In this document: positions 21,567 through 62,592 of the stretch, one piece after another
Position numbering within the stretch: position 1 is the first letter of the stretch
How the letters are laid out: the number at the start of each line of letters is the position of its first letter
Origin: a phage
DNA: 64,000 nt
Strand: one strand, 5' to 3'
Sequence record: PV467749.1
Notes under the pieces: generated by a model
Database searches by the model: none
The model's input: the letters and a program-made list of their open reading frames with translations, nothing else
What the model was told of the DNA's origin: nothing
Program-made: the position numbers and the translations under genes

Positions 21567-21576
21567 CGATTTTTGT

Positions 21577-23614: not shown

Positions 23615-23626
23615 TATTGTTCGTCC

Positions 23627-33160: not shown

Positions 33161-33195
33161 CATCAAATGTTCCCTTCTTATGGAGAATCAAAAAG

Positions 33196-39197: not shown

Positions 39198-39205
39198 TAT
39201 AAATA
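39198..39205 (+). promoter_or_regulatory. T4-type late promoter TATAAATA for endolysin gene
   Basis: TTTCAGTACTATAAATAATAAT about 18 nt upstream of ATG 39223; same extended motif as upstream of the capsid gene. Confidence 0.6.
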
Positions 39206-39726: not shown

Positions 39727-40122
39727 ATGGCAATTGTTTTTAAAGGTTTTTCAACTCCAGTAGTTGGAAGAACTGAAACATTGTATGACAGTGAATTGGT
39801 TCGTCAGGATTTAATGAATCATTTCAATACAAAAAAAGGTGAACGTGCATTTGATGCTGATTATGGGTTCATTGCGTGGGATTTGCTATTTGAATTGGAT
39901 GGTTATAATACAATCAACCTTTTGGAAGCAGATGCCCGTAGAATTATTAGCTTGGACCCACGTTTAAGCTTAAAGAAACTTCAAATATCAAGAATTGAGT
40001 ACGGTTATCAGATGGATATAGTACTTGAATATGTTGTTCTCAATACTCTTGAAGAATTAACTATAGTTTTTGATGCAAGAAGTAACAACAGAATGGCTAC
40101 CTATTCTGTATCATCTTTGTAA
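39727..40122 (+). CDS. gp25: baseplate wedge protein, gp25-like
   Basis: 131 aa; block RIISLDPRLSLKKLQISRIEYGYQMDIVLEY typical of the gp25/GPW family; AAAGGAAA RBS; upstream of gp6-like gene. Confidence 0.7.
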   Translation: MAIVFKGFSTPVVGRTETLYDSELVRQDLMNHFNTKKGERAFDADYGFIAWDLLFELDGYNTINLLEADARRIISLDPRLSLKKLQISRIEYGYQMDIVLEYVVLNTLEELTIVFDARSNNRMATYSVSSL

Positions 40123-40157: not shown

Positions 40158-40194
40158 GGATAAATATTTCTATATATAATTTATAGGATGATGT

Positions 40195-40963: not shown

Positions 40964-43900
40964 ATGTCACAACAAAAAAGACAGTCTAATTTATATAGTG
41001 GTGAGGATTGGACTCAAGTATATGAAAGTTTCTATAAAATCAATCTTACGGCATATGATTTTGATACCATTCGTCAAAGTATGATTGATTATCTACGTGC
41101 TACGTACCCCGATTCTTTCAACGATTGGATCGAAAACGACCAGTTTATCTTTATTCTAGATACCATTTCTATGCTAGGCCAGAACTTAGCATTCCGCATG
41201 GACTTAAACACCCGTGAGAACTTCCTAGATACTGCTACTCGTCGTGCATCAGTACTGAAACTCGCAAAAATGATTTCTTACTCTCCACGCCGTTCATATC
41301 CAGGTCGTGCAGTTGCTAAATTAACAGAAATAAAAACCAACCAAGACGTTCGTAATAGTTTTAACGAATCACTTAAGGATAAAATCATTCGTTGGAATGA
41401 CCCAATGGACACAAACTGGTATGAGAACTTCATTCTAGTTATGAACAGTTCATTTGTCAGTACTAACCAGTTTGGTAATCCGGTTAAACGTATCGATATC
41501 AATGGTGTTTCTCGTCAGCTATATCGTATGAATACAATTCCAATGTCAGCACCAAGTCTTCCATTCACAGCTACAGTTAATGGTGAATCGATGACATTTG
41601 AAGTTGTCAACCCTGATATTACCGCAGTTGGTGTTGAAGAGCGTCACCCTGAACCACAAGAGCAAAAATATATCGTTTATCAGAATGATGGTAACGGATT
41701 TAGTTCTCCAAATACTGGTTTCTTCGTTTATTTTGTTCAAGGGACATTGACATACCAAGATTACCAATATAATATTCGTGAAGAAAACCGTATCCAAGAC
41801 ATCAACGTAGATAATATCAACGAAACTGATGTTTGGGTTCAGGAAATCAACGAAGATGGTATTGTACGTACTAAATGGACCAAAGTTCCATCTATGGAAA
41901 GTATCGCATACAATACTGTTAACCGTCAACTAAAAACAATCTTTGCTGTCACAACTCGTGATAAAGACCAGATTACTATTAAGTATCCTGATTCTCGTAG
42001 TGGTGTTGTTCCTCGTGGGACATATCGTGTATGGTATCGTGTTAGTAATGGTGAAACATACAACATTAAAACGTCTGAAATCCAGAACAAAAGTGTAAAA
42101 TACACCTATAGAACCAAAACACAATCAAGCTACGAATCCAGTACTTTGGATATTCGTTTCACATTGCAATATGAATCAGATCGTGCACAAAGTGCAGAAA
42201 CAATTGAACAAATTAAGGCTCGTGCTCCACAAATGTATTACACTCAAAACCGTTTTGTTAACGGCGAAGACTATAACATTGCTCCGTTGAGTTTGGGTAA
42301 CACAGTTCTTAAATCTAAAGCAATTAACCGTTTATATAGTGGACAGTCACGATTCATTGATATTAATGATCCAACTGGTAAGTATCAAAACACTGATGTG
42401 TTTAGTGATGATGGATCAATGTATCAAGAAAACACACAATTTAATAAATCTTTACAATTACCAACTACCAAAACAAATGCTAGTATTGTAATTGATAATA
42501 TTCAGCCATTGATTGGTGAGAATGCTGTAATCCAACGTTATCAAGCATATCCACCGAATACAATTGGTATTGAAATTCAACAAAAATGGACACCTGAATA
42601 CAATTCTAATTACGCAACTAATACGTATGGTCGTATTATGGGGGCAACAGGTAACGTATTCGGAAATTATCAAGTTGGTACGTTGATTAAGTTTTCAAAT
42701 GCCGGAACTACTGTGTGGGCTAGTATTGTTAGTGTTCTTGATAATGGATATTACGTTCTAAGTACTTCAGTTTCATCAAATATGCAAGCACAAGAGTACA
42801 TTTTACAATACAGAACACGTTTTAATAGTGTCGAAGTGCAAGCAATCGCCGCAATGCTTGATAAAAAGACAGATTTTGTTATTATTCATGATAAAGAAAC
42901 AACTTCTTGGATTCCATTAGAAATCAGTACTGATGAAGATACTATTTCTTATAATGGAAATGAAGTTCTTGTTATGATTAACATCAAATATACTGCTGAA
43001 ACATGGGAATTTGATGCGAATGGCGTTGAATATGTGTTCGTTGGTGGTGATAAAGTTCGTTTTTACTTCGTTTCTTCTAAAAAGATAACTGATATTAGTA
43101 CTGGTAGTGTTCAAAGTGACAAAATTGAAATTTTATCATCAAATACCACAAGCAATAGTAATGCTGGGTTGACAAGTAACATAGATTTCCAAATTTATGA
43201 CACAATTCAACAAGAAAACGGGTATCTTGATGGTTCTCGTGTGGTTATCACCTCTGAAAACGTTGATAGTAATGGAATCCCACTAGAACCTAATCAATTC
43301 AGAGAAATTGTACCAAATTGGACTGGTGAAGATTCAGTTAAATATGGTGGTATATTGGTTTTCCAAGAAAACGATGATTTCACTATATCAGTACTGTCAT
43401 TACCGAACGATACTTTCACTATTCTTGATTCTTCATGGGCTTATACAATGGATCAGGCACTTGCAGAAACTAATGCGTATAAGAGAAGTGAATTTGTTCG
43501 CAACAATGCTATTCGCTCAACAACATTGAGTGGTATCTATAGTAAAGGTTCAGGCTTTATGGTTGGCTTTAAATATGATGGTAAATATTACTTCATTGAA
43601 CAAACTGTTGGTAATAATAATGACCGTTTAAACCAATTAATTGAGAACTTGACCTATTCTGATGATACAACTGCTGCAACTCCTGAACTTGCGTTTTATC
43701 GTGCTATTGTTAATATCGGTACTAATGCTGATGTTAACCAAAAGTTAGATTATTATGGTTATAAAGATGTAACTTCACAATATACCGTAAAAACGAATGC
43801 AAGAACTGGTATTGATTTCCACTGGAAACATTATGCACCAGATGATAATCGCATTGACCCAAGTAGAACAAACTTGATTGACATGTATGTATTAACCAAT

Positions 43901-44425
43901 TCATACAAAACTGAAGTTGATGTATGGTTGAAGAATGGAACACAAGGTAATATGCCTAAACCGCCAACATCTGTTGAATTGAAAGACATTTTTAAAGAAG
44001 TTGAACAAAAAATAGTCATCAGTGACAGTATTATTTGGCATAGTGCAGAATATCTACCATTATTTGGTGCGAGTGCTGCTGAAGATTATAAAGCAGATTT
44101 CAAAGTCGTCAAATTGCCTAACAGTACAATGAGTGATGATGAAATTCGTCAAAATGTCGTAGCACTAACTAACGAGTATTTTAATGTTGACAACTGGGAT
44201 TTTGGTGAAAGTTTCTATTACACAGACTTGTGTACATACATTCACTCCCAATTAGGACGACATATTAGTACTATTGTTATCGTAGCTCAAAACCCTAACT
44301 CTAAATTTGGTTCACTATTTGAAATACCTTCACGTTCTGACCAGATTTTCTTAAGTACTGCATCAGTTGATAACGTACAGATAGTCAATTCCTTGGCTAA
44401 GAGTAACATTAACATTGGTTCATAA
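40964..44425 (+). CDS. baseplate wedge protein, gp6-like (1153 aa)
   Basis: Large ORF following gp25-like gene (conserved gp25-gp6 synteny); AAGGA RBS; assignment mainly positional. Confidence 0.5.
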   Translation: MSQQKRQSNLYSGEDWTQVYESFYKINLTAYDFDTIRQSMIDYLRATYPDSFNDWIENDQFIFILDTISMLGQNLAFRMDLNTRENFLDTATRRASVLKLAKMISYSPRRSYPGRAVAKLTEIKTNQDVRNSFNESLKDKIIRWNDPMDTNWYENFILVMNSSFVSTNQFGNPVKRIDINGVSRQLYRMNTIPMSAPSLPFTATVNGESMTFEVVNPDITAVGVEERHPEPQEQKYIVYQNDGNGFSSPNTGFFVYFVQGTLTYQDYQYNIREENRIQDINVDNINETDVWVQEINEDGIVRTKWTKVPSMESIAYNTVNRQLKTIFAVTTRDKDQITIKYPDSRSGVVPRGTYRVWYRVSNGETYNIKTSEIQNKSVKYTYRTKTQSSYESSTLDIRFTLQYESDRAQSAETIEQIKARAPQMYYTQNRFVNGEDYNIAPLSLGNTVLKSKAINRLYSGQSRFIDINDPTGKYQNTDVFSDDGSMYQENTQFNKSLQLPTTKTNASIVIDNIQPLIGENAVIQRYQAYPPNTIGIEIQQKWTPEYNSNYATNTYGRIMGATGNVFGNYQVGTLIKFSNAGTTVWASIVSVLDNGYYVLSTSVSSNMQAQEYILQYRTRFNSVEVQAIAAMLDKKTDFVIIHDKETTSWIPLEISTDEDTISYNGNEVLVMINIKYTAETWEFDANGVEYVFVGGDKVRFYFVSSKKITDISTGSVQSDKIEILSSNTTSNSNAGLTSNIDFQIYDTIQQENGYLDGSRVVITSENVDSNGIPLEPNQFREIVPNWTGEDSVKYGGILVFQENDDFTISVLSLPNDTFTILDSSWAYTMDQALAETNAYKRSEFVRNNAIRSTTLSGIYSKGSGFMVGFKYDGKYYFIEQTVGNNNDRLNQLIENLTYSDDTTAATPELAFYRAIVNIGTNADVNQKLDYYGYKDVTSQYTVKTNARTGIDFHWKHYAPDDNRIDPSRTNLIDMYVLTNSYKTEVDVWLKNGTQGNMPKPPTSVELKDIFKEVEQKIVISDSIIWHSAEYLPLFGASAAEDYKADFKVVKLPNSTMSDDEIRQNVVALTNEYFNVDNWDFGESFYYTDLCTYIHSQLGRHISTIVIVAQNPNSKFGSLFEIPSRSDQIFLSTASVDNVQIVNSLAKSNINIGS

Positions 44426-44433
44426 CACATTAA

Positions 44434-44457
44434 GGCGTTCTTCGGAACGTCTTTTTT
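44434..44457 (+). terminator. rho-independent terminator with UUCG tetraloop (GGCGTTC-TTCG-GAACGTC, T6)
   Basis: Stem-loop followed by TTTTTT directly after the gp6-like gene stop. Confidence 0.65.
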
Positions 44458-44461: not shown

Positions 44462-44469
44462 CATAAATA
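44462..44469 (+). promoter_or_regulatory. late-promoter-like motif CATAAATA upstream of the giant ORF
   Basis: One mismatch to TATAAATA, about 35 nt upstream of ATG 44506. Confidence 0.35.
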
Positions 44470-44505
44470 AATCAAATGAATGAACGAATTATATGGAGTC
44501 CAAAA

Positions 44506-47500
44506 ATGACTAATAATTTTAAGTTTCAACCTACACAGATGGCTGAAGCAGTACAGAAGAAGCTTTTCATAAAAAGATTGCCTGAGTGGATGCAAGGCTT
44601 AGAAGATATTCAGAAAGTCAGTGATGATGTTATCCAACAATGGTTTAATCCGGCTGAAAACGAATTAGTTGACGGCTACATTGGTGACATGGGTTCTCCG
44701 GCAGCAGCAGGGAACATCTTCTTACACGAGTCAACAGTCGCACGTCAACTATATCAGTTGTCCACTGCGTATGTCTCAAGAAATGATGACTCCAGCATTC
44801 GTTCAATTCAATTTTATGATGATCTAGTTGGCTATATGAATCATTACGGGGCACTAACCGAAAATGAAAGCCGTTTGTTTAATGGTAAGTTCTATTCATG
44901 GACCCCACCAATTAACCCTAACAAAATGAACAACTACAGTTCATATCTATGGGATTCCAAGAATAGCTATAATATCGCAACTCCAGATTATATTGTAATG
45001 GAACGTGGTGCAGAAAATGGAAACACTTGGTCACTACAAAACTTCTGGTACACATTAGGTGAAACTTTAGAAGATGGTACAATCCTAACTGAAGAACTAA
45101 TGCAAGATTCCCGTTTTGTTCGTGCTCGTGCTCCAATTATCGAATACAATAAAAATATCGAACTAATGAACTACGGTACTAAATTCCGTGGGACAGTTGA
45201 TTTGTTCTCTGATATTATTAAACCTGAAGATATCGTACAAAAAGATATTAACAGCGGTATACGTATTGATGGTATTATTCCACAAGATGGTATGCGTATT
45301 CTTTTCACCAGTATTGGTAACAATGGTGAAAACAACCGAATTTATAAAGTATATGTTAAACGTATGCAAGATGGAACACGTGTGTATGGTCTAGCATTAG
45401 ACCCAGACGAAGAATCTGAAAGCCGTCCGAGTGGTGAACCACAAGATGGTGACGTAGTTCTTATTATCAAAGGTAATGAATTTGGTAACAGTTCCATGTA
45501 TTGGGACGGTTCTCATTGGATTCAAGCACAGTCTAAAACTTCTGTGAACGTATTTCCACAATTCCAATTGTATGACCGTAATGGTGTTAAACTAAACAAC
45601 ACTACTACCTATCCATCAAGTACTTTTACTGGTTCTTCATTATTTGGTTTTAAAATTAACTATAATTATGCAACCGATAGCGTTTATGGTTATAACATTG
45701 AACTGGGTGATTACAATTATTACACCTATGAGAATTTCCTACAATCAACTCGTTATACCTACGAGCATTTGGGTGTGGAAGTTGAAATTGATGGACTATA
45801 TTACTATAACGTAATTGGTGAAGGTAATACAATGAACCTAGAAACTGATTGGGTTCGTAGTACTGAATACTCCAAACAATATGTTAAACAAACTCCACAG
45901 GTTGAACGTACAGTAATGTTCCGCGTGTTCAGTACTGTTTATGACATGGAAAGTTTCAAAGATCCAGTTGAAGGAATGTATGCTTATGTAATTGAAGTTG
46001 ACAGAACTTATCAATATTACAAAGCAGAACGTGAAACATATCTTGATTGGCATGTTATCGTTGGTGATGGGGTACAAAGCGTTAAGTACAATCATACATT
46101 TGAATTGGCACAAAAAGTACTAGATAATTCTGATGATATTATCGAACTAGTTGTTGATGGTGTGGAAATAAAAGAATACACCAAAACTGTAGTTAATAAT
46201 CAAGTACAAAGTATTACAATTGATAGCTCTGTTGATTTGGATGAAGATTCTGTTGTACAAATAAGAACTTATAGTAGCACTATCACTCCTAATAAAGAGT
46301 TGGGTGCATATGAAGTTCCAATTAACCTACAAAATAACCCATATAATTCAAACATTGAATACATCAATCAAGGTGATTACACCCTGCACTTCCAAGATAT
46401 TATTCAAAAGAATATTACATCTGGTTCTGCTGATGACTTTAACAATTACGAAGAACGTTTGGCTGCTGGTTTGGTTAATAATGGTGTAGGCACTAAAATT
46501 ATTCAAAACGAAGCGTCCATGTTACCACTAATGGCACATACCGCTAATGAAGATATTGATTTGTTTGAATCAATCATGTTTATGCAAGCAGAATACTTCC
46601 GCTTCATTAACAAGTTCAACACTCAAATGCTTCGTTTGTATGAAGAAGACCCAAGTGCTTTTCTTGGTAATAGTGCATCAAACATCGTAGATGCGATTCT
46701 AACAGCTATTAATATGGGACGTGATAGTTCATTCCCATTCTACTATGACAACGTTGCAAGCACTGCTGGGTTTATTCGTGCATTTGTCCCACCAACTCCA
46801 CAGTTCTTGGGTATTTTGCAAGCTTATACACCACAAAAAGCAACATTCTTAACTGCTGGTAGTAAATCTAGCTGTTATAATATCAGTCATACTGGTGTTA
46901 TTTCAAAAGCATACCGTGTTATCAATGGTGTTGATAAAATGGATGACGTAGTTTTTGAATTGGAAAATCGTATCTTTAATAGTATTGACCTTACTTTCAA
47001 GGATATTGATTATAAACCAGTACTAAACAGTGAAGACCTATTCCCAACTCCATATTTCACTGGTACTGATTATAGTGCAGAAGAAAAGAAAACTCTATTA
47101 CTACGTGGTTACATTAACTTCACAGCAACCAATGGTATTAGTAACAGTACTCATGATTATGATGCAAATAACTGGAGAACTTGGAACTATACTGGTAGTT
47201 ATTATGTTGTTGATGGTCAACGTACTGAAATTCCTGCTCGTGGTTCATGGCGTGCAATCTATACTGACCAATATGGCACATATCGTCCAGCAACCCATCC
47301 GTGGGAAATGATGGGCTTCTCTCAACGTCCTACTTGGTGGAACCAAGAATACGAACCAACCGCAGTTCAAGTTGGTGAACGTGAGGGTGATGTTGTTTAT
47401 GTGTATGAAGCACTAGTAATGAATGAAAATGGTGATTTGGTCCCAAGTGGATTGTGGGATATTGATGGTACTATCGGTGACAGCAGCACTGGTACTATTT

Positions 47501-50500
47501 TGTCCGGTGAACGCCGTGGTCAATATGACAAATACAAGCGTTTCGGTGTACAGCCATTTAAAATCACTAAGACTGGCGAGAAAACCAGTACTGGTATTGA
47601 TATTTGTGAAGTTGAGTATATTGCACCTGAAGTTTTAGGTCTTGTTAGTGGTAATTTAGATCATCGTGCAGAACCGTGGGCTTATGGTGACATGGGTGAC
47701 ATGGAATTCACTTACATGAACACTGCGATGTTTGCTTATGACCAAATGCTTCTTCTATACAAAGCAAAACCAGCACAGTTTGCAAACTATTACTGGGATA
47801 CCCGTAATGATAACCTTAAACCAGTTTATACTGATGGTTCACAGTTCCTTTATGGTGAAACCCGTAAGCGTCTAAACTTTGACAGTGCTACATTAGTACA
47901 TGGTGAGAAAAATACCCGTACTATCGGTTATCAAATGTTTGTTAGTGACTATTTGATGTATCAGAATAAGAACATTACCACCAAATACGGTGACGTTGTT
48001 CGTTCTTCTTATGTCAATGTCGCTCACAAAATTGGTGGCTTTACTAAAGCAGACCAATTGACATTCACTGCTAAATCTTTCGGTTTGATTTCACAAGAAA
48101 ACCAAACTATCGGTCTAGTTCGTTCCAATAACATTCGCGATGAGCAAATGAGTGCAGTAAAAATTACTTGGAATGGTAGTGCATATCAAATTGATGGTTA
48201 TGATTTAGTTGGTGCTAAATTTAAATATAAAATTCCAGTTAAAAATGGAAGAAAAGTAACTCTTAAATTGGAAGACAGAACTGTTGTTCATTACAATGAA
48301 TGGAAATCTGAAGGTACATTAGAATATGGTAAAATATTCAATACATACCAAGAAGTTTATACTTTCATTTGTGGATATGGTGAATATCTAAAAGAACATG
48401 GCTGGATTTTTGAAGATGTAAATGATAGTGGTGCTCAACAAGACTGGACAACTATTGCTAAAGACTTTGTTATTTGGAGTCAGAATAATTTAAGTACTGG
48501 TGAGTTCATCTCCTGTACTCCAAGTGCAGCTAATGCTAAATTTGGTGCAGATTTTGGTTCAGTTCAATCTGTTACACAGAACAGTGGTGGTGTTTGGTCA
48601 CTACTCGATGATGAAAACCAAGGTATCCGTCAATATGAAATCGAAACTTCGCGTATCGGTAACGTATTCACAGTGAGAACTACATCTGAATCACAAAAAC
48701 GTATGGCGTTGATTCGTTTGAGCCTAAGTTCATATGAACACGCAGTTGTTTTTGATGATAAAACTATCTTTGGTGATTACATTTACCAACCAACTTATGG
48801 TGCTATTCAAGAATTGATTAAAATGTATGGTTACATTACTGGGGCATGGACTGGTCGCCTACAAGCACCTGGTTTCATTATCCTAGAAGCAGGAACTTTA
48901 CCATCATTTGAAAAATTAGTAACTGATTTTGAATTATATTATAATAGTGAAACTCCTGTGAGTGATGTTCAGCTTCAAGAGTTATCAAATCACTTGATTG
49001 GCTATCAAACTCGTGATTATCTACAACGTATGATTAGTAGTGATGTTAGTCGTGTTGATTTCTATAAAGGATTCATTCATGACAAAGGTACTAACCAAGT
49101 AATGGAAAAAGTACTACGCGTTTCTAAATCTTACGACACTGATGAATATAAAGCACTACAGGAATGGGCATTTAAGATTGGCACTTATGGTAATATCAAT
49201 GGTAAGAAAAATCTACAATTTAAACTAATCAATGACCAATTTAAACAACAACCACAGATGGTTTCGTTTGATGTTAATGCTACATCAAATGGTACTGGTA
49301 ATGGTATTGTTTATTACGGTGAACAAGGGGTTGACTCACGCTGGATTACTCGTCCAAATGGTAAGTTTTCATTCCCAATGCGTAGTGGAAGAAGTGAGAA
49401 TATCCAACTTCCAGACATTGGCCCAGTAACACTAGATGAAATTTCATACGTTACTAAAGATTTCAGTACTGCATATAATGATCGTATCAATTATATGAAT
49501 AACAGTGGTGAAATACCAGATTCTGTATGGATGTTTAAAGATGGTAATGATTTGTGGAATATTTTCGAACTAGTAGACACTGAAGTTGAGATGCTCTCTA
49601 TCGTTCCAATTGAAAATACCGATGTATATGCAGAACAATTCTGTAAAGTAACTCTAAGTGATGATATCCCACTAAATGATGGTGATTATTATTACTTTGT
49701 TGATGAAACTAACTTTATGCCAGATACATTGACTATAGAAAGTCAATATTATACTGCGGGTAATGACCCTAGAGTTATGGTAGTTCCGTTTGACACTTCA
49801 ATAACTATTGACTTCACTGATCCTGATACTCGCCCACGCTTGTATCGTTATGTTTCACGATTCAGTACTGAAGAGATGCGTCAGGAATACATTGACAGAA
49901 AATATAGTTTTAAAGCTCCACAAAGTACTTTGTTTGACCGCCCAACCACATATGATGAGCGTACTAACATTACTGCGTTGTACCTAAACGTGTTTGACCC
50001 AATCAACGGTGTTATTCCTGGTGCAGCGATGCAGAACGTTACCTACACATCTCCAGTTGACCCAGCACAATACAACAGCAATGGTGAATTGATTCAAGCA
50101 TGGGGTGCTGATAAAGTTGGTCAGGTTTGGTGGAACACCAGCACTGCTTTCTACTTAGATTACACTCGTGCAATCTATGATGCTGATGGTAATGTGGATG
50201 TTGATGCAACAAATGAATATAAACGTTATAACTGGGGCAGATTGCTACCGCACAGTACTGTTGATGTTCTTGAATGGGTATGTTCGCCAGTGGAACCATA
50301 TAACTGGGACAAATACTGTAAAGACGTTGCTAACAAAAATAAAAACAATACTATGTACCTACCAAGCGGAACCGCATTGGAAGATAATTATAGTACGTTC
50401 TTAGAATATGATAGCACAACTGATACTTATGTTACAAAATACTATTTCTGGGTTCGTGATACAATCTATGTACCACCATTGCATTCCAGAACTAAATCTT

Positions 50501-53500
50501 GTACTGATATTGCTCGTATTATTAAAGAACCAGCACAGCTTAACATTCCTTGGTTTGCACCAATCAATGAAAGCTCGTTCATTCTAAGTAATATGCAATT
50601 TGAAGTCAACGATGACACAAGTATTTTAACTGTTTCTTATTACATGGATAATACTGAAGTTATTAAACATGACCAGTATCAATTATGTAAAGAAGGTGAT
50701 AGCTATAACTTCAATCCATCAATCTGGACTTCTATGTGGAATTCTATGATTGGTCAAGAAACTACTGAATCAGGAACTGTTATTGATTTACTATATCCTT
50801 TAGTACCAAACGGTTTAGGTTCTAATAAGACTTGGTTCCAAGATGTAATTGAAGCTCGTAGAAACTTTGTAGAAAGTGCAAATAACTATTATCGCTCACA
50901 GAATATAACAACTAACACTGTTCTAATGGACGAAGTGTTTAATGTTAAAACTACTGAAGTTAACCCGAATGAAGTATCATATCGTGTACTAACTTACAAT
51001 AGTGAATTAGTCATTGCACCTGAAAGTGACAAGTTCAAAGAAAACGACGCAGTACTAGTAAGTACTAGTGGTGTATTACCTAACCCACTATCAACTAGCT
51101 CTGTATATTTTGTGCATATTGATGCTAATGGTTATATTCATCTAATGAATAGTCCATCAAGTGCTGGTAGTGTGGTTACCATTACATTGGAAAACCGTGG
51201 TGAAGGTCAACAGAAAATGATTAAACAATCAGACTATGTTGAAGCACTAGGAACTTCATTGGACATGACCCAGTACTGGTCACTAGCAGATTGGTATGAT
51301 ATTGGTTACGATAAAAATACTGCATATACACAAGAATCCAGCCTAGAAGATGCAAACACTAAGAACTATCAAGTTGGTGACATTATCAGAATTACAGATG
51401 TTGATGGCATCTGGACATTGTACATTAAAGCACAATCACGTGATTCAGTTTACTGGAAAGCAATTGGTCGTGAAAATAGTACAGTTGAATTGAATGATAT
51501 GTTATACGCTGACTATACAGTTCGTGATGCTAATGGTTCGTTGAGTAATCGTGAGATTAACGTTCGTAAAGCACTAGCTTTATTGAAGAACTCATTCGAC
51601 TTACATCAGAGTGAAATTGTGTTTGATATGGTTAAGTATGTTCACGTAGAACAAAGCGTTGTTGATTGGGTATTCAAAACATCTTACATTTATATTGTAG
51701 GTTTAGAACAATCATTAGTACAGAACTATTCCAACGACAACTTGATTAATCAAATCGTTGAGTACTTTGAAGAAGTTAAACCATATAGAACTAAGATTCG
51801 TTCCCAGATTGAACAGAAAACATCAGATGATGATTTAATTAAAGGTTTGTGTAATGATTTAGATCCTAATGGCTATATATTTGCAGATGGGACTTGGGTT
51901 AAAACGGAAAAAGACATTTGGGATTATGAATATGCTCAATTCAATGAGGTAACTCAACGTTGGGAGCAAGTTGGTGAATTGCCAAGTGATTTCGTAACAC
52001 CTAATCGCCGTTTCCAAGAAATTGATGTTATCATGCACTACGACAACACTCAATGTAAACCAAATGATAATTTGGCAAGTGTTGATGTATTGGAAGAAGT
52101 GAATAAGAAATATCAATCTAATGCACAAGATGTTGTTAGTAATTTTGAATTACAACGTTACAAATATACATTCCCAGAATACAGTGATGAAGATTTCGAC
52201 CTATTGGTTGCTTATCAGATGCAATTGTATTACCCAGAATTGAACGTAACTCTAGGGATTGCTTACGGTGTTAACCAATGGTATGCAGACCATGCAGATG
52301 ATTTGGTAGCAACCGCAGAATTCACAGAAACGTTGAATCGTGTATATAAAGAATCAACACAAAATGAAATGTTTAATGACGTAAATCATTACGTTCAGTA
52401 TAACACACTCTCTAACCGTTTGAAATTGTACACAGGTGCAGATGATGAAGTAATTCATGATGAAGTTGGATGTGGATTTAGTGGGTTAACCTATGATGAT
52501 AATCCAAGCACCAGACTACCGTTTGGTTATGCATCCAGTACTGATTATAACTTTGGTTACTTTGAAGTTAGTAGTGAGTTGTATAAAAAGTATGTTTCTT
52601 TAATTAAAGAAAACAATACTACTGCAACTGATGATGAAGTTAGAATTATACTTGAAGTTGAATATGGTGTTTATTCATATCGCCATGTAGATGAAGATGG
52701 AAATCAACGATTCTACAATGACGCAATTCATGTATTGTCCGGTATGCGTGGTTTGTATGACAAAGATGCTACCGACCATTATGAAAAGGCTGAAGAAATA
52801 CTAAGTAGAATGCCTATTGATATTCATGCATTTACTATGATGCCACGAAAATATGTTTATGTTAATGTTAATGGTGTATACGAGAGTATCCCAGATGACC
52901 AAAGCATTGATGATTTCATGGAAGACAAATTCATAACTGACGGTCAACTAGTTCAATTGGCAGAAATAAATCTTGATGACTTACCTCTTGATAGAAATAA
53001 CCCAATGTACAGTGATTATCAGCACATCCTAGATAGCATCACCGATGCTAAGTACTACGATGATATGAATGCATTTGATAACCTAGCACTTGAATCACAA
53101 ACTTCCGAGTTAAAATGGGAAGTTGAAGGTGACGAAGTAGATCCGTACATAATCGACATTTCTGATATTAACCCATCAGGAAGAAAGATTGGTCAGATTC
53201 GCTTCACAGTTGATGGTTATGGATTCAATAGTGTTTCACTAGTTCAATTGAGAGACAATAGTAGATATAAAACTGAAGGTATGGTTATTATCAACCCTTA
53301 TAAAACAACAGAAGCAATTGTTAGTATTCCTTCTTACGCTAAGATTGAAAATGATATTAGTAAATCATACAGTAAGTATGATGAAAAATACTTCTATAAA
53401 ATTAAATCAATTGTTAGTGATACAGAAGCTGAAGTAATTGACAATACCCTATCTGATGGTGATAAGGTTATGATATTCACAACTGATGGTGAAGATTATG

Positions 53501-54477
53501 TGAGATACCAAAACAATGCATGGGAAACCATCTTGAGTGTATCAAAAATCAAAACTGACACCACACCAACCTTGTACACAGTAAGAAACACTGCGAACGG
53601 AACTGTAGAACTACTAGATAGTACTGGAGTTGTACTTCGTTATGATAACATCACTAAACAACAACAAAATGAACCAGCAATACCTCTAGCATTGAACATC
53701 GTTCGTATTAGAACCTTTGCTGATCCAGAATTCTTGGTTGATGGTGTTAAGTTGTATGAAACAAATAGAAACTATGCTATCGACGCAATGAACTATGAAG
53801 TATTCTACGACACAACACTATACGGTGGTTCTTATAATGATGGAATTACACCAGATGACGTTGATGTTTGGGTAGTGTCTAACGAGATATTTGAAGTTGA
53901 TGGTGTTACCATTGATAACGGATATAACTTACCAATTACTGGTGCAGGTGTTCTTAGTGAGTTAGTGAGAACCAAAATGACTGATAGTGTGGAAATTAAC
54001 GTGTTCGAGTATGATGTTGGTATTATTCAACCAGTACTGAATACTGAAGGGGTATGGGAATATGCATATCCACTAGTTAGTGATACATATATTGGTGTAG
54101 TTGGTGGAACAGTAACTAACATTACTGCTATCAGTGAAGAAAATGCTACTTATGTTTCACAACCAGATTCAGTTAGTCCATATAGTGTTACTAATAATGT
54201 TCTATCTGGTGCTGGTGCAAGTATGAATGATATTATTTCTCTTGGTTTTGAAAAAGTTGAAGTACGATTTGCAAATAACTTACTCCGTGGGGTAATGTAT
54301 AGTGCAGAACACGACTTTAAAGAGAATGTGACATATTCATTTAATGGCTTGAACTTAGGTAAAGTTAATTTACTAAAACGTTATAGTGTTAACAGTTATC
54401 CAATCGAACTATCTGTTTACTCCGATAGTTTGCAAATAAGTGGTAATGACATTAAAAATCTATTAGAAGTTAAATAA
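44506..54477 (+). CDS. giant virion structural protein (about 3323 aa), putative baseplate/fibre component
   Basis: Uninterrupted 10-kb ORF; ATG 44506 with GGAG RBS (alternative in-frame ATG at 44476); Asn/Tyr/Asp/Thr-rich; follows gp25- and gp6-like genes; ends at a strong terminator. Confidence 0.6.
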   Translation: MTNNFKFQPTQMAEAVQKKLFIKRLPEWMQGLEDIQKVSDDVIQQWFNPAENELVDGYIGDMGSPAAAGNIFLHESTVARQLYQLSTAYVSRNDDSSIRSIQFYDDLVGYMNHYGALTENESRLFNGKFYSWTPPINPNKMNNYSSYLWDSKNSYNIATPDYIVMERGAENGNTWSLQNFWYTLGETLEDGTILTEELMQDSRFVRARAPIIEYNKNIELMNYGTKFRGTVDLFSDIIKPEDIVQKDINSGIRIDGIIPQDGMRILFTSIGNNGENNRIYKVYVKRMQDGTRVYGLALDPDEESESRPSGEPQDGDVVLIIKGNEFGNSSMYWDGSHWIQAQSKTSVNVFPQFQLYDRNGVKLNNTTTYPSSTFTGSSLFGFKINYNYATDSVYGYNIELGDYNYYTYENFLQSTRYTYEHLGVEVEIDGLYYYNVIGEGNTMNLETDWVRSTEYSKQYVKQTPQVERTVMFRVFSTVYDMESFKDPVEGMYAYVIEVDRTYQYYKAERETYLDWHVIVGDGVQSVKYNHTFELAQKVLDNSDDIIELVVDGVEIKEYTKTVVNNQVQSITIDSSVDLDEDSVVQIRTYSSTITPNKELGAYEVPINLQNNPYNSNIEYINQGDYTLHFQDIIQKNITSGSADDFNNYEERLAAGLVNNGVGTKIIQNEASMLPLMAHTANEDIDLFESIMFMQAEYFRFINKFNTQMLRLYEEDPSAFLGNSASNIVDAILTAINMGRDSSFPFYYDNVASTAGFIRAFVPPTPQFLGILQAYTPQKATFLTAGSKSSCYNISHTGVISKAYRVINGVDKMDDVVFELENRIFNSIDLTFKDIDYKPVLNSEDLFPTPYFTGTDYSAEEKKTLLLRGYINFTATNGISNSTHDYDANNWRTWNYTGSYYVVDGQRTEIPARGSWRAIYTDQYGTYRPATHPWEMMGFSQRPTWWNQEYEPTAVQVGEREGDVVYVYEALVMNENGDLVPSGLWDIDGTIGDSSTGTILSGERRGQYDKYKRFGVQPFKITKTGEKTSTGIDICEVEYIAPEVLGLVSGNLDHRAEPWAYGDMGDMEFTYMNTAMFAYDQMLLLYKAKPAQFANYYWDTRNDNLKPVYTDGSQFLYGETRKRLNFDSATLVHGEKNTRTIGYQMFVSDYLMYQNKNITTKYGDVVRSSYVNVAHKIGGFTKADQLTFTAKSFGLISQENQTIGLVRSNNIRDEQMSAVKITWNGSAYQIDGYDLVGAKFKYKIPVKNGRKVTLKLEDRTVVHYNEWKSEGTLEYGKIFNTYQEVYTFICGYGEYLKEHGWIFEDVNDSGAQQDWTTIAKDFVIWSQNNLSTGEFISCTPSAANAKFGADFGSVQSVTQNSGGVWSLLDDENQGIRQYEIETSRIGNVFTVRTTSESQKRMALIRLSLSSYEHAVVFDDKTIFGDYIYQPTYGAIQELIKMYGYITGAWTGRLQAPGFIILEAGTLPSFEKLVTDFELYYNSETPVSDVQLQELSNHLIGYQTRDYLQRMISSDVSRVDFYKGFIHDKGTNQVMEKVLRVSKSYDTDEYKALQEWAFKIGTYGNINGKKNLQFKLINDQFKQQPQMVSFDVNATSNGTGNGIVYYGEQGVDSRWITRPNGKFSFPMRSGRSENIQLPDIGPVTLDEISYVTKDFSTAYNDRINYMNNSGEIPDSVWMFKDGNDLWNIFELVDTEVEMLSIVPIENTDVYAEQFCKVTLSDDIPLNDGDYYYFVDETNFMPDTLTIESQYYTAGNDPRVMVVPFDTSITIDFTDPDTRPRLYRYVSRFSTEEMRQEYIDRKYSFKAPQSTLFDRPTTYDERTNITALYLNVFDPINGVIPGAAMQNVTYTSPVDPAQYNSNGELIQAWGADKVGQVWWNTSTAFYLDYTRAIYDADGNVDVDATNEYKRYNWGRLLPHSTVDVLEWVCSPVEPYNWDKYCKDVANKNKNNTMYLPSGTALEDNYSTFLEYDSTTDTYVTKYYFWVRDTIYVPPLHSRTKSCTDIARIIKEPAQLNIPWFAPINESSFILSNMQFEVNDDTSILTVSYYMDNTEVIKHDQYQLCKEGDSYNFNPSIWTSMWNSMIGQETTESGTVIDLLYPLVPNGLGSNKTWFQDVIEARRNFVESANNYYRSQNITTNTVLMDEVFNVKTTEVNPNEVSYRVLTYNSELVIAPESDKFKENDAVLVSTSGVLPNPLSTSSVYFVHIDANGYIHLMNSPSSAGSVVTITLENRGEGQQKMIKQSDYVEALGTSLDMTQYWSLADWYDIGYDKNTAYTQESSLEDANTKNYQVGDIIRITDVDGIWTLYIKAQSRDSVYWKAIGRENSTVELNDMLYADYTVRDANGSLSNREINVRKALALLKNSFDLHQSEIVFDMVKYVHVEQSVVDWVFKTSYIYIVGLEQSLVQNYSNDNLINQIVEYFEEVKPYRTKIRSQIEQKTSDDDLIKGLCNDLDPNGYIFADGTWVKTEKDIWDYEYAQFNEVTQRWEQVGELPSDFVTPNRRFQEIDVIMHYDNTQCKPNDNLASVDVLEEVNKKYQSNAQDVVSNFELQRYKYTFPEYSDEDFDLLVAYQMQLYYPELNVTLGIAYGVNQWYADHADDLVATAEFTETLNRVYKESTQNEMFNDVNHYVQYNTLSNRLKLYTGADDEVIHDEVGCGFSGLTYDDNPSTRLPFGYASSTDYNFGYFEVSSELYKKYVSLIKENNTTATDDEVRIILEVEYGVYSYRHVDEDGNQRFYNDAIHVLSGMRGLYDKDATDHYEKAEEILSRMPIDIHAFTMMPRKYVYVNVNGVYESIPDDQSIDDFMEDKFITDGQLVQLAEINLDDLPLDRNNPMYSDYQHILDSITDAKYYDDMNAFDNLALESQTSELKWEVEGDEVDPYIIDISDINPSGRKIGQIRFTVDGYGFNSVSLVQLRDNSRYKTEGMVIINPYKTTEAIVSIPSYAKIENDISKSYSKYDEKYFYKIKSIVSDTEAEVIDNTLSDGDKVMIFTTDGEDYVRYQNNAWETILSVSKIKTDTTPTLYTVRNTANGTVELLDSTGVVLRYDNITKQQQNEPAIPLALNIVRIRTFADPEFLVDGVKLYETNRNYAIDAMNYEVFYDTTLYGGSYNDGITPDDVDVWVVSNEIFEVDGVTIDNGYNLPITGAGVLSELVRTKMTDSVEINVFEYDVGIIQPVLNTEGVWEYAYPLVSDTYIGVVGGTVTNITAISEENATYVSQPDSVSPYSVTNNVLSGAGASMNDIISLGFEKVEVRFANNLLRGVMYSAEHDFKENVTYSFNGLNLGKVNLLKRYSVNSYPIELSVYSDSLQISGNDIKNLLEVK

Positions 54478-54478: not shown

Positions 54479-54512
54479 AAAAAGGAGAGCATTTGCTCTC
54501 CTTTTCTTTTTT
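54479..54512. terminator. bidirectional terminator (A-run, AGGAGAGC-ATTT-GCTCTCCT, T-run)
   Basis: 8-bp stem nearly identical to the terminator at 7748..7773; between convergent giant gene and ClpA-like gene. Confidence 0.8.
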
Positions 54513-56799
54513 ACGCAATAACTTTTTCTACTGCTTTAGTTCGTTTAGGTTTGATAGCCAATTTACCATCAATCACATCAAACGTTACGTTACCACCATT
54601 AACCAGAGAACCACACAACATCTCTTTAGCTAGTGGAACACGGATGTTTTGCTCAATAGTGCGTTTCATTGGACGTGCACCCATCCCAACTTTAACACCA
54701 TTTGTTGCCAACCACTCACGTGCCGCTTTGGTTAGTGAAACTTTAACTTTGCGGTCTTTGATTTGTTCATTCAAACTTCCCATGAACTTATCAATGATGC
54801 TGTCAATCGCTTCGCTGCTTAGGTCTTTGAATGTCACAATACTATCGATGCGGTTGATGAATTCAGGTGGCAAGAATGCTTTAATCGCTTTATCTTGTGC
54901 TGTATCACTACCGCTCATCCCAATACTACGCTTGGTTGAATCTGCTGCACCAAGGTTAGTTGTCATAATAACAGTTACGTTATTGAAGTAAACAGTTTTA
55001 CCTTGTGAACCAGTCAAACGTCCTTCGTCCAGAACCTGTAGGAAGGTTAGTAGTACTTTACGATCAGCTTTTTCGATTTCATCAAGCAACAGTACTGCAT
55101 TCGGGAACTGCTCAATCTTGTCGAGTAGCAGACCGTTACCGGAATCGTGACCAACATAGCCTGGAGGTGAACCAATCAGTTTAGCAACAGTATGTTCCTG
55201 TGAAAACTCGGACATATCGAAACGAATCAGTTCAGAGCCAGTTGCATCAGCCAGTGCTTTGGTAATTTCAGTTTTACCAGTACCAGATGGCCCAACAAAC
55301 ATGAATGCACCTTGAACACTTGATTTATCACGCAGACCAGCACGAGCTACCATCACGTTATCAACCAGTTTCTGTACTGCTTCTTCTTGACCGTATACAC
55401 GAGAACGTAGTGCATCTGGTAGATTACGCATACGCTCACTTTCAGTGCAAGCAACCACGTTAATATCTAGGTTTGCGATACCTGCAACAACTTCTTGAAT
55501 CAGTGCAACAGTGATGATGTTATCATCAGTTTCACGAGAACGTACTTTCGCTGCCGCCGCATCCATTAGGTCGATTGCTTTGTCAGGGAAGTGTTTGTTC
55601 TTCAGGAACTTATCACTTAGTGTAATAACTGCATCCATTGCTTCAGTACTGAACTCTACGTTATGGAAAGTTTCATAAGTAGATTTCAAACCATTCACAA
55701 TCGCACGGGTTTCATCAATTGTTGGCTCAACTACATCAATTTTCATGAAACGGCGAGTTAGTGCACTATCTTTTTCGATGTTTTTACGATATTCATCGTA
55801 AGTTGTTGCACCGATTACACGAATCTCACCACGAGATAGTGCAGGTTTGAGCATGTTACTCATATCCATAGAACCGTTGCTTGCTGAACCAGCACCAACC
55901 ATAATATGGATTTCATCGATGAACACAATAGTGTTTTCACGTTTCTTCAGTTCTTTGAGTAGGTTATCGATACGTTCTTCGAACTCACCACGGTACTTAG
56001 TACCAGCAGTCAGTGCACCTACGTTCAGAGACAGAATTTCAACATCTTTAAGATGCTCTGGTACTTCACCATCAGCGATTGCCTGTGCTAGACCATCAAT
56101 GATTTGAGTTTTACCAACACCAGCTTCACCAGTCAGGATGGCATTCTTCTTAGTCTTACGGGCCAGAGTTTCAATCAGTGCAGAAAGCTCTTTCTGGCGA
56201 CCAATCATTGGGTCAAGTTTACCTTCTTTTGCAAGTGCGGTTAGGTTAGTGGTGTAATCTTCTAAACCTTTTTGTTTGGACGATGGTTGCTGTTGTGCCA
56301 CTTTTTTCTCCCCAGTTGGCTCATCACTAATGCTTTGAAGGTTGATTCCGTTGTCGATTGCTTCTACGTGCTTCTGTAGAGTTCGTGCTGCTTCAGTACA
56401 AGTGATACCCTCTTCACGCAATGCTGCTTCTAGTGCAGTATTTGGGAAGGACAAACACTCAAACAGTACAAAATAAGCATCAATTGAGAAATCATCACGT
56501 TTAAGTTGCTCAATTACTGATTTCTTAGAAAGTTCCTGAACTACACGGTTCACGAGAAGTGATGTGCGGTTCGCTTCATCACCATCAGCACTTTTAGGTG
56601 CATGTGGGAATGTTGTATTCTTCAGATATGCAATCAAACGACTGTGTAGGTTGTCTGCATCGATGTTCATATCTTCAAATACTGCTTTGATGCTATCGAT
56701 TGTCAGTACTGTAGCACTTAGATGGTCAATAGTCAAGAATGTATGACCCAGAGAAGTTGCCAGTTCGTCGCTTTTTTTGAATAATTGGGTAAGATTCAT
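54511..56799 (-). CDS. clpA: ClpA-like AAA+ unfoldase (two AAA+ modules plus Clp N-domain)
   Basis: 762 aa; D1 Walker A GEAGVGKT and Walker B IVFIDEIH; D2 Walker A GPSGTGKT and Walker B LLLDEIEKA; conserved VYGQEEAV, RFDMSEF, GSPPGYVG blocks; no ClpB-type middle domain; IGM tripeptide at the ClpP-docking loop position; ATG 56799 with AGGAGA RBS (track ORF starts at upstream GTG). Confidence 0.9.
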   Translation of the reverse strand: MNLTQLFKKSDELATSLGHTFLTIDHLSATVLTIDSIKAVFEDMNIDADNLHSRLIAYLKNTTFPHAPKSADGDEANRTSLLVNRVVQELSKKSVIEQLKRDDFSIDAYFVLFECLSFPNTALEAALREEGITCTEAARTLQKHVEAIDNGINLQSISDEPTGEKKVAQQQPSSKQKGLEDYTTNLTALAKEGKLDPMIGRQKELSALIETLARKTKKNAILTGEAGVGKTQIIDGLAQAIADGEVPEHLKDVEILSLNVGALTAGTKYRGEFEERIDNLLKELKKRENTIVFIDEIHIMVGAGSASNGSMDMSNMLKPALSRGEIRVIGATTYDEYRKNIEKDSALTRRFMKIDVVEPTIDETRAIVNGLKSTYETFHNVEFSTEAMDAVITLSDKFLKNKHFPDKAIDLMDAAAAKVRSRETDDNIITVALIQEVVAGIANLDINVVACTESERMRNLPDALRSRVYGQEEAVQKLVDNVMVARAGLRDKSSVQGAFMFVGPSGTGKTEITKALADATGSELIRFDMSEFSQEHTVAKLIGSPPGYVGHDSGNGLLLDKIEQFPNAVLLLDEIEKADRKVLLTFLQVLDEGRLTGSQGKTVYFNNVTVIMTTNLGAADSTKRSIGMSGSDTAQDKAIKAFLPPEFINRIDSIVTFKDLSSEAIDSIIDKFMGSLNEQIKDRKVKVSLTKAAREWLATNGVKVGMGARPMKRTIEQNIRVPLAKEMLCGSLVNGGNVTFDVIDGKLAIKPKRTKAVEKVIA

Positions 56800-56837
56800 G
56801 TATTCTCCTAAATGAGTAGTCACTCTAATTAATAAAC

Positions 56838-60254: not shown

Positions 60255-61355
60255 TTATACCCCAATCAGTGGGATACCTGTTATATTAAGTAGAACAGAT
60301 GCTTGAAGCTTAACTGACTCACCTGCCGAAAGGTTGTTTACTATACCATCGACGCGGAACCCTAAGTTTTTATTAGAGTTGAGAGAGTTAATCACCCAGT
60401 TTTCGTAATCCGCTTTTGTAATACCATTCGGATTTGGGAGAGTTGGGTCAACATCATTAATTACCATAGAAACATCCCAATTCGGGCGACTACTTGTAAT
60501 TACATCCTTGATTGATTCTAGTTGTGTAATGCGACGTGGATCTGGAATCTGACTTGCACCAATTGAACCAGGAACAAATGTACCTTGATTATCAACATAG
60601 AACTGACCTTTAATGAAAAATGTTTTTGAATTATACGGAAGAGAAACAATTTCACCTGATGAATCACTAACTTCACGAATCATAATTTTCAATTCATAAA
60701 AATAGTTACTACCAAATTCAAACACACCAGTACCATTTGTGAATGTTGTCCAGTTATTTGAATCAACCTGTGAAGTACCACCCATATTGAAGTACGCTAA
60801 TGGCTTAGTACTGTTACTTTGTGTAAATTCAATATATTTCTTACCTGTATCATAGTTGATATCAAGTAGTGTGGAGTACTCTTTATTTTCTGGACGAGAT
60901 GTTTGAATTTCACGCCATTCTTTATTTTTCATTAGGACACGAAGGGAATCACCATTACTGGTAAGAACCATACGACCCATAATACTATTTTCACCATCTG
61001 GTACTGTGTTGAAAATTGAAATCATTGGGATAGATGCCCAGTCAGCTTCAGATGCAGTATCTACTGGCTGACGAGCATTATCAACTAATGCAAGAAGTAG
61101 TTCGCCAGTGTTGCCAGTATTTCTGTACCAAATCTGACCATTAACGTTACCACGAGGTGCAGTAGCTCCACTGAAGTTCTCAACCAAGTGGAGGAAGTTT
61201 TCGTTCCATGCTTGACCGTAACCAACTTTATTTCGACCTGCAAAGTTTAACGGTACTGGGTTACTACCAGGTTGGTTTGGTCCTAATATTACGTTATTTG
61301 GAATGGTAGCATAAACGCTACCATTACTTCTATAAATTGTATAACTTACACTCAT
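60255..61355 (-). CDS. hypothetical protein, possibly tail fibre/baseplate-associated (366 aa)
   Basis: Ser/Asn/Gly/Thr-rich ORF, last in a three-gene minus-strand array. Confidence 0.5.
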   Translation of the reverse strand: MSVSYTIYRSNGSVYATIPNNVILGPNQPGSNPVPLNFAGRNKVGYGQAWNENFLHLVENFSGATAPRGNVNGQIWYRNTGNTGELLLALVDNARQPVDTASEADWASIPMISIFNTVPDGENSIMGRMVLTSNGDSLRVLMKNKEWREIQTSRPENKEYSTLLDINYDTGKKYIEFTQSNSTKPLAYFNMGGTSQVDSNNWTTFTNGTGVFEFGSNYFYELKIMIREVSDSSGEIVSLPYNSKTFFIKGQFYVDNQGTFVPGSIGASQIPDPRRITQLESIKDVITSSRPNWDVSMVINDVDPTLPNPNGITKADYENWVINSLNSNKNLGFRVDGIVNNLSAGESVKLQASVLLNITGIPLIGV

Positions 61356-61367
61356 ATCATCACCTTA

Positions 61368-61976
61368 TTATTGTAGTTGGACACGAACTGTGTATTTGAT
61401 TTGCAAAACACGGTTAGCACTTTTCTCAACTGGGTGAAAAATAATATGGGTAAGTGGAATACCGCTATCACCATTTGTATATAAACCCAATTCGTCAAAT
61501 ACATATGTCCCATCCATGCTAGTACCAGAGCTAACACCTTGGTCAGATGGCTCACCTAAACCTAATGTACAAATACAGACGATATCAGTGTAAGCTTGAC
61601 CTGGAATGTGAACAGTTGTAATGTTGTTATATTGTGAATCAATACCAGCAGAGATACGTGGGTTGATTTTTTTCAGATAAGTCTGAGAATATAGACCACC
61701 GAAAGAAGTAACGCGTGGTTTCTTGTATGTGATACGACCAGTACTCAAAACTACTGTTCCACCATTACCAAAACGCATCTCACTAATAGATCCAATAGGA
61801 ATACCAGTACTATCTTGATTATAAGCCAACGCATTAGCAATAGCAGTACTCATATTTTCAGGGTGAATTGCGTTTGATTTATCCAAAACGATTTTTTGGT
61901 TAGATGGATCAGTAACGTCAGTAATTAGTACATGACCCTTAACAAATAGTTTTGGTTGTTCTGTTTCTAATTTCAT
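61368..61976 (-). CDS. hypothetical protein (202 aa)
   Basis: ORF tightly packed between neighbours. Confidence 0.5.
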   Translation of the reverse strand: MKLETEQPKLFVKGHVLITDVTDPSNQKIVLDKSNAIHPENMSTAIANALAYNQDSTGIPIGSISEMRFGNGGTVVLSTGRITYKKPRVTSFGGLYSQTYLKKINPRISAGIDSQYNNITTVHIPGQAYTDIVCICTLGLGEPSDQGVSSGTSMDGTYVFDELGLYTNGDSGIPLTHIIFHPVEKSANRVLQIKYTVRVQLQ

Positions 61977-62483: not shown

Positions 62484-62592
62484 TGTTAAGCCCTTTTAGT
62501 AGTGAACTTTCATTTATTTATTAATGGCAACGAAATGTATTTTGTACTGATAAATATTGGTATATGACATTAACTCATACAAGGGAAATATT

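Follow-up and report, generated by a model that had tools for sequence, protein, structure and literature searches.

A 380-kDa protein encoded in the baseplate module of a phage genome: probably the main building block of the baseplate periphery

The giant gene described here lies on the plus strand of a phage genome (record PV467749.1), from which a stretch of 64,000 nucleotides, hereafter the window, was analyzed. Its longest open reading frame (ORF), running from an ATG at 44476 to 54477, comprises 3333 codons plus a stop codon and covers 15.6% of the window. The initial annotation had described a single uninterrupted frame taking up about 15% of the sequence, and this description holds: the translation contains no internal stop, and no ORF longer than 93 aa competes with it in any frame between 44476 and 54477. 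Given the composition of the window (36.5% G+C, stop probability of 0.068 per codon), a run of 3333 codons would be free of stops with a probability of ~2e-102. As argued below, the baseplate periphery is probably built mainly from the product of this gene, for which a fibre or a gene fusion is a less likely reading. The gene is not new; it is an uncharacterised known gene, long present in databases and proteomic tables.

The probable true coding sequence (CDS) is slightly shorter, spanning 44506 to 54477 (+). A GGAG Shine-Dalgarno motif (44493-44496, +) is located 9 nt upstream of the ATG at 44506, while none precedes the ATG at 44476. Moreover, all homolog alignments begin at residue 11 of the longest ORF, and the orthologs in phages vB_Ec-M-J and 121Q are annotated from the codon equivalent to ATG 44506, which is therefore the likely start of the gene. 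The product initiated at this codon, from which residues are numbered throughout, has 3,323 amino acids, a mass of 380.3 kDa and an isoelectric point (pI) of 4.5. No transmembrane-like hydrophobic windows were found in it.

The 10-kb region shares 99.2-99.5% identity with Asteriusvirus-type jumbo coliphages, among them WPEC5, Ecwhy_1 and vB_Ec-M-J, and 82% with 121Q, PBECO4 and phAPEC6; in 35 phage records, a single continuous match takes in at least 80% of it. Compared with vB_Ec-M-J, the giant gene shows 49 synonymous and 14 non-synonymous codon differences. The 121Q ortholog also has exactly 3,323 residues, with no indels relative to the window protein, and the ratio of non-synonymous to synonymous substitution rates (dN/dS) against it is 0.069 for residues 1-2466 and 0.109 for residues 2467-3323, never exceeding 0.17 in any region. 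The giant gene is thus a real coding sequence under purifying selection.

One might still suppose that several conventional genes have been joined here by a sequencing or assembly error, since a few public records show the region as 3-11 small genes: the ortholog is annotated as 11 CDSs in MH494197 (CMSTMSU), eight in NC_027399 (K64-1) and three in OR699182 (SD-6_S16). However, the breaks in CMSTMSU, a record flagged UNVERIFIED, amount to 16 single-base deletions with respect to the window gene, mostly in homopolymer runs, whereas at least 35 independent phage genomes, and 230 homolog clusters, have the frame intact and nearly identical in length. Furthermore, a 382-kDa product has been identified by mass spectrometry (MS) for the phAPEC6 ortholog. 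Stop codons or frameshifts splitting the gene, which were to have overturned the initial annotation, did not emerge from the comparative data, which leave the frame whole; on these grounds the joining of separate genes by error is refuted already. The public records in which the gene is broken up are artefacts, and would mislead automated pangenome or domain analyses.

Genomic context is the strongest evidence on the giant, and the role proposed here rests mainly on synteny. The preceding genes encode a gp53-like protein (33927-34241, +; a borderline match to PF11246), a 751-residue virion protein (34253-36508), a gp5-like hub with lysozyme (887 aa; 36522-39185, +), a separate phage lysozyme (162 aa; 39223-39711, +), a gp25-like wedge/sheath-initiator protein (39727-40122, +; PF04965, E=1.5e-8), an HNH homing endonuclease (254 aa; ORF 40195-40959, +; phrog_559, E=2e-55; Pfam DUF723) and a gp6-like wedge protein of 1153 residues (40964-44425, +; phrog_10646, and phrog_219 'baseplate wedge subunit' with E=3.4e-21), directly 3' of which the giant gene begins. 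This order matches the arrangement 53-5-...-6-7 of T4 and gp46(25)-gp47(J)-gp48(gp7-type)-fibre of Mu. It bears out the earlier proposal of one giant gene in the baseplate module, at the position of T4 genes 7-12; as for the further statement that this gene directly follows the gp25- and gp6-like genes, the gp6-like gene does adjoin it, but the HNH gene intervenes between the other two. The gp6-like protein, presumed to be the partner of the giant, had no Pfam match at E<=1, its link to gp6 coming from PHROGs only (phrog_219, residues 26-125). Precomputed annotation assigns PF27647 (DUF8360) to gp6-like proteins encoded 5' of distant giants (5540-8998 in locus L004 and 5607-9008 in locus L005).

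The trio formed by gp25, a gp6-like protein of ~1,150-1,320 residues and the giant recurs in RaK2, 121Q and PA5oct, as well as, at 24-27% identity, in two metagenomic phages whose giant gene lies immediately against the gp6-like gene or overlaps it; the gp6-like and giant genes also adjoin each other in vB_Ec-M-J. In PA5oct and in a Tara phage, the gene after the giant encodes a conserved protein of ~200 residues (36.5% identity between the two), and the next ones encode paralogs that have in common an N-terminal domain of ~80 residues and whose C-termini resemble either T4 gp10 (E=2.5e-14) or T4 gp12 (E=9e-7). With equivalents of gp6 and of gp10/gp12 on either side, the giant can therefore be placed where T4 has gp7(-gp9). 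In RaK2-like phages, gp6, gp25 and gp53 are recognisable and gp7-gp12 are not (CBB table).

Counterparts of these downstream genes occur in the window about 7 kb 3' of the giant, on the opposite strand. A 202-residue protein (61368..61976, -) is homologous to the ~200-residue proteins of the Tara phage (44% identity, E=5e-48) and of PA5oct (gp126; 35%, E=8e-32), and the first ~77 residues of a 366-residue virion protein (60255..61355, -) correspond to the adaptor domain of the PA5oct/Tara pins (E=2e-12 to 2.5e-5). The sizes of the two proteins agree with those of the phAPEC6 virion proteins gp251c (21.95 kDa) and gp250c (40.33 kDa, with 40% MS coverage), respectively (PMC7247149). We presume that the 366-residue protein is a pin or fibre docking on the baseplate periphery and that the 202-residue protein is a baseplate partner, displaced by ~7 kb in the window. 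Comparison of the latter with Mu gp48 and T4 gp7, gp8, gp9, gp10, gp11 and gp53 gave no support for a relationship, the best probability being 4% (N-terminus of gp9). The adaptor domain, ~75-80 residues long, is common to at least six pin/fibre paralogs across these phages.

Comparison of the loci holding the conserved pair (60255-61976, -, in the window; 19207-24220 in locus L009; 22702-28750 in L004) showed that the pair is inverted and separated from the giant in the window, and apparently in RaK2 too. Between the giant and the pair lie genes for a ClpB-like protein, a 502-residue virion protein, a gp15-like protein and a NUDIX protein. Because of this inversion and separation, the gene order points to a putative rearrangement of the baseplate module within the enterobacterial clade.

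That the giant product is a virion protein is indicated by the literature on its orthologs. In phAPEC6, gp245 (381.88 kDa) was detected with 17 unique peptides and is listed right after the 131-kDa 'baseplate wedge' gp244 (PMC7247149); CBB_236, which adjoins the 'baseplate wedge' CBB_237, yielded 21 peptides (PMC5259590), and the record of PA5oct gp128 carries a flag for electrospray ionization tandem mass spectrometry. The published MS data on these orthologs consist of peptide counts only. A function for them is assigned in none of PMC7247149, PMC5259590, the RaK2 papers PMC3622015 and PMC10253068, and the Atu_ph07 paper; in the CBB paper the giant serves solely as a landmark for orienting genome maps, under the name 'the largest ORF' (PMC5259590). 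No structural work on a RaK2-type baseplate turned up in the literature, and the one existing map, of a tail, has a resolution of 25 Angstrom (PMC7247149).

A search of 5.8 billion proteins returned 230 homolog clusters, all of them giant; among the 120 matches listed, lengths range from 2,780 to 5,638 residues and identities go down to 24%, many members deriving from marine and other metagenomes. Across Pfam and PHROGs, the only family match was phrog_10938 ('virion structural protein'), which is hit over its full length (E=0, 5477 bits; residues 11-3330 of the longest ORF aligning with profile positions 1-3324). The giant thus belongs with RaK2 ORF070w, 121Q gp582, phAPEC6 gp245, CBB_236 and PA5oct gp128, the orthologs grouped in that family, to which no function is assigned and whose PHROG category, 'head and packaging', is unsupported by genomic context. 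Among isolated phages, the conserved core of the protein is confined to the RaK2-like supergroup, where it is carried by Asterius-, Alcyoneus-, Eneladus- and Mimasvirus, CBB, Vibrio 2.275.O, Atu_ph07 and Phosso, and by PA5oct-like phages, SCTP-2, RsoM2USA, XacN1 and RAS14. The homologs in these phages are always annotated as 'hypothetical' or 'virion structural protein', save that one PA5oct-like record bears the label 'chitin-binding type-3 domain-containing protein'.

Searches for more distant relatives were uniformly negative. Pfam returned no match for the whole protein (E<=0.01) or for seven in-frame segments (E<=10), and no match among PDB chain sequences was obtained by phmmer or by hmmsearch with a 14-member profile (E<=1 and E<=10). 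When the family profile was aligned by hhalign with single sequences of T4 gp53 and gp6-gp12, every probability was below 1% (0.3% for gp7); profile-profile comparison gave 0.08% with a 13-member T4 gp7 alignment and 0.1% with an 18-member Mu gp48 alignment, and PF10076 did not match. The three Pfam domains of gp7 (PF21428, PF21427 and PF21456) were absent from the giant at E<=10, whereas T4 gp7 itself matches all three. As these defining domains were searched for and not found, we do not claim membership of the gp7 family proper.

The anatomy of the protein was mapped from high-scoring segment pairs and a 20-member alignment, and models of it were built with AlphaFold2 from 22-sequence alignments. 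A core spanning residues ~20-2460 is conserved from coliphages to marine phages; it is interrupted by variable islands at residues 471-590 and 1731-1800, and indel hotspots fall at about residue 150, at 1256 and at 1733-1800. The model of residues 1-1200 was confident, with a mean predicted local distance difference test score (pLDDT) of 85 and a predicted template modelling score (pTM) of 0.77, and that of residues 1267-2466 was moderate (pLDDT 74.8, pTM 0.46). Residues 1-2466, to which the models extend, are predicted to form mixed alpha/beta globular domains and not a fibre.

The conserved N-terminal segment (residues 1-80; 44506..44745, +) contains predicted helices at 14-24 and 32-47 and has pLDDT values of 28-55. 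It is followed by the confidently modelled part of the core (residues 81-1200; 44746..48105, +; pLDDT mostly 82-97), in which the model distinguishes beta-rich domains (~86-590), a helical bundle (~606-735) and alpha/beta domains (~777-1175); the first variable island, a beta-sandwich at 471-590 (45916-46275, +), lies inside this part. The most conserved stretch of the whole protein, residues ~1400-1540 (48703..49125, +), includes the top 100-residue conservation window (0.58) and the motifs EHAV.FDN.TIFGD.IY.P, WNGRL.APGFI, LPNFEKLV.DF, HLIGYQ.RDYL and FYKGFI..KGT; nowhere in the core is the model less confident (pLDDT 35-58). Because residues 1-80 and ~1400-1540 are conserved yet poorly modelled, both are candidate partner-dependent interfaces, and the second may be a wedge-core element.

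The hinge at residues 1731-1800 (49696..49905, +) is both variable and a hotspot for insertions, and is where the local dN/dS peaks (0.17). In relatives it accommodates insertions of up to about 1,700 residues (P0108), and in marine members FG-GAP repeats occur within hinge insertions of 800-1,300 residues (mapped in P0094 and P0120), while a CBM5/12 module is found at the ~1256 hotspot. Given these insertions, both positions must be solvent-exposed and, in the marine lineages, are predicted to be carbohydrate-binding. The second half of the core (residues 1801-2466; 49906..51903, +) ends in the near-invariant sequences DWVFKTSYI and EVKPYRTKIR. Beyond it lies a lineage-specific C-terminal region (residues 2467-3323; 51904..54474, +; 97.8 kDa, pI 4.3), whose conservation is 10-25 identity points below that of the core but which is still under purifying selection (dN/dS 0.11). 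A search with these 857 residues among 1.84 billion representatives retrieved eight relatives, all orthologous giants or fragments of them; the idea of a shared receptor-binding protein (RBP) module was rejected, as no relatives turned up beyond the orthologous giants.

Structural comparison of the model of residues 1267-2466 placed wedge 'triplex' or related baseplate proteins at nine of the top 36 matches: Algo12 (score 6.1), diffocin TRI-1 (5.1), phiKZ087 (5.0), A-1(L) gp32 (4.9), All3315 (4.8), KP1 gp6 (4.7), two phiCD508 triplex proteins (4.7-4.8) and Mu gp48 (4.6). Overall, the giant is unlike any known protein, both in its sequence and in its predicted fold. Among known systems, T4 gp7, the 'wedge initiator' (PF21428 Gp7_helical, PF21427 Gp7_5th, PF21456 Gp7_6th), is alike in being a large, multidomain, non-repetitive virion protein encoded directly 3' of a gp6-type gene, in a comparable module of the type 53-5-(25)-6-7, and the relatives of the window phage encode gp10/gp12-type pins after the giant. 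The gp6-binding helical domain of T4 gp7 lies in mid-chain (residues 643-689), which is compatible with an internal interface in the giant. Also among the closest systems are the minimal gp7-type 'triplex' subunits of contractile injection systems, namely Mu gp48/PF10076, P2 gpI, TssG of the type VI secretion system, Algo12 of AlgoCIS, diffocin TRI-1 and A-1(L) gp32; a mark of the functional class of TssG, P2 gpI, Mu gp48 and T4 gp7 is a gene placed immediately after a gp6/J-type gene, as the giant gene is. The peripheral baseplate proteins PHIKZ087 and PHIKZ027 of phiKZ (PDB 9xqs, 9xqd) come from an unrelated lineage without sequence similarity to the giant; they have one third of its size, and several proteins stand there against one chain here. 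The N-terminal adaptor domains of branched tailspikes (CBA120 TSP4, T4 gp10-like XD/anchor; PDB 7rfv, 7rej) show a resemblance at the domain level only, extending over less than 10% of the modelled segment, but CBA120 TSP4 forms a trimeric spike whose enzymatic beta-helix has no counterpart in the giant.

As for signals around the gene, a terminator-like hairpin with a T-run (44432..44453, +) separates it from the gp6-like gene, and a strong bidirectional terminator hairpin with an 11-12 bp stem (54480..54505), beginning 3 nt past the giant stop codon, is common to the giant gene and to the convergent ClpB/ClpA-like gene. On the 3' side of the first hairpin, at about 44462-44470 (+), the sequence CATAAATA is a near match to TATAAATA and may recall this T4 late promoter. 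Since TATAAATA is not enriched in the window (5 found vs 7.8 expected), no promoter is claimed; a scan for sigma-70 promoters was likewise at or below expectation. The only two exact plus-strand matches to TATAAATA are found just 5' of structural genes: one at 39198-39205, 18 nt before the ATG at 39223, and the other at 33153-33160, preceding the likely true start of the ORF at 33106-33927. The ortholog of the gene at 32225-33166 (-) is annotated as a gp55-like late sigma factor.

The convergent neighbour (54511-56823, -) encodes a 770-residue ClpB/ClpA-like double-AAA+ ATPase (AAA_2, E=3e-49; ClpB_D2-small). The giant has a ClpB-like neighbour in RaK2 (ORF069), 121Q (gp581) and CMSTMSU as well, whereas PA5oct and the metagenomic relatives lack one at that position; that it might aid the folding or assembly of a 380-kDa protein is pure speculation. 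The region of the HNH gene is an insertion (40182-40947) in whose place vB_Ec-M-J has 28 nt. With respect to that phage, the upstream flank is 100% identical and the first 253 nt downstream, at the start of the gp6-like gene, are 89.7% identical, which looks like a co-conversion tract of endonuclease homing. The gp5-like hub is unusually large: its OB domain (Phage_base_V) occurs together with DUF2345, a C-terminal lysozyme and a weak match to M23 peptidases. Amid the tail and baseplate genes there is a MutT/NUDIX hydrolase gene (59757-60221, +), named after the annotation of its vB_Ec-M-J and RaK2 orthologs. Farther on, a 387-residue 'tail protein/tail fibre' (62557-63720, +; phrog_13565) shows a weak collagen-triple-helix match at residues 239-257; in vB_Ec-M-J the two genes after its ortholog carry the annotation of colanidase tailspikes, and this position is beyond the end of the window.

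Our preferred reading, to which we would assign a probability of roughly 0.6, is that the giant is a gp7-slot wedge subunit that has expanded to 380 kDa and serves as a platform, making up the greater part of the baseplate periphery. The phage would be a jumbo myovirus of the RaK2/121Q type, and the giant a single, non-repetitive multidomain chain in its wedge. What follows on copy number, on contact with the gp6-like protein, on docking and on orientation is inferred. The giant would be present in presumably one copy per wedge and six per virion, and would join the gp6-like dimer, gp25 and the gp53-like protein through a conserved internal or N-terminal interface. The 2,460-residue core would serve as a structural platform on which the ~200-residue protein and the pins or fibres with the ~75-residue N-terminal adaptor domain may dock, with the loops around residue 1256, the hinge at 1731-1800 and the C-terminal ~860 residues facing outward to the host.

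A bolder proposal, which we advance tentatively and hold to be possible rather than probable, is that the gp7-type wedge subunit, conserved universally elsewhere, has been replaced throughout the supergroup, with its abundant uncultivated marine relatives, by a 2,460-residue core of folds not represented in the PDB, so that one chain would take the part of gp7 and of much of gp8-gp11. This might have come about by non-homologous displacement, or by divergence beyond all current detection. Residues ~1400-1540 would then complete the wedge triplex, and the chain would dock the adaptor-bearing pins and pass the host-contact signal to the sheath.

Among the competing explanations, the one we take most seriously, while judging it rather unlikely, is that the giant is an additional, supergroup-specific peripheral component, such as an outer ring or scaffold interposed between gp6 and the other components, and that the true minimal gp7 is another protein, most plausibly the ~200-residue one. 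The latter is sized like Mu gp48 (180 aa) and other minimal gp7-type subunits, shows higher conservation than the giant in the same set of phages (35-44% vs 24-27% identity) and is encoded directly before the pins and fibres, as gp48 is in Mu; the giant, for its part, has no homology to any gp7-type family. A fibre or adhesin of unusual size had also been considered in the initial annotation; that the giant is such a tail fibre, tailspike or adhesin, acting mainly in receptor binding, now seems improbable. Self-comparison by BLASTP (word size 2, E<=10) and by profile disclosed no internal repeats, and no fibre, spike or RBP family of Pfam or PHROGs was matched. The predicted domains are compact and mixed alpha/beta, with the pTM of 0.77 for residues 1-1200; three quarters of the chain are conserved over hosts ranging from E. 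coli to marine bacteria, and the C-terminus, which is under purifying selection (dN/dS 0.11), seems not to be exchanged with RBPs of other phages. Besides, RaK2-type phages carry separate elaborate fibre proteins (PMC10253068).

The other possibility raised at the outset, a fusion of wedge and fibre functions, fares slightly worse still. In its most explicit form, gp7 would have fused with the equivalents of gp8, gp9, gp10 and gp11, the product being possibly cleaved after assembly. The mass of 380 kDa is indeed on the order of that of T4 gp7+gp8+gp9+gp10+gp11 in one wedge, and the giant occupies the gp7-gp11 slot in Asteriusvirus-type genomes, from which recognisable gp8-gp11 genes are absent. 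However, no segment of the giant matches any T4 wedge protein, from gp53 to gp7-gp12, and the relatives that possess a giant still have separate gp10- or gp12-like pins. The shortest of the 120 listed family members has 2,780 residues and no free-standing part was found, meaning that no unfused stage is seen; finally, BLASTP and hhalign comparisons showed the C-terminal region to be unlike the 200-residue and gp10-like proteins encoded downstream in relatives.

Contractile phages have their decision-making organelle in the baseplate, the (gp6)2-gp7 core of which is considered universal. Our results indicate that a widespread jumbo clade (comprising the RaK2, 121Q, PA5oct and Atu_ph07 types and marine metagenomic relatives) has no recognisable gp7-gp9, the gp7 slot being filled there by a 380-kDa orphan with confident but unmatched predicted folds. 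Establishing the place of the giant in the baseplate structure would show how the minimal wedge is scaled up in jumbo phages and how branched fibres are docked, and would provide several new fold families. Members of the RaK2-like group are under evaluation as therapeutic or biocontrol phages (against avian pathogenic E. coli, Klebsiella, Pseudomonas and Erwinia), and host-range engineering might target the exposed insertion hotspots as well as the C-terminal region.

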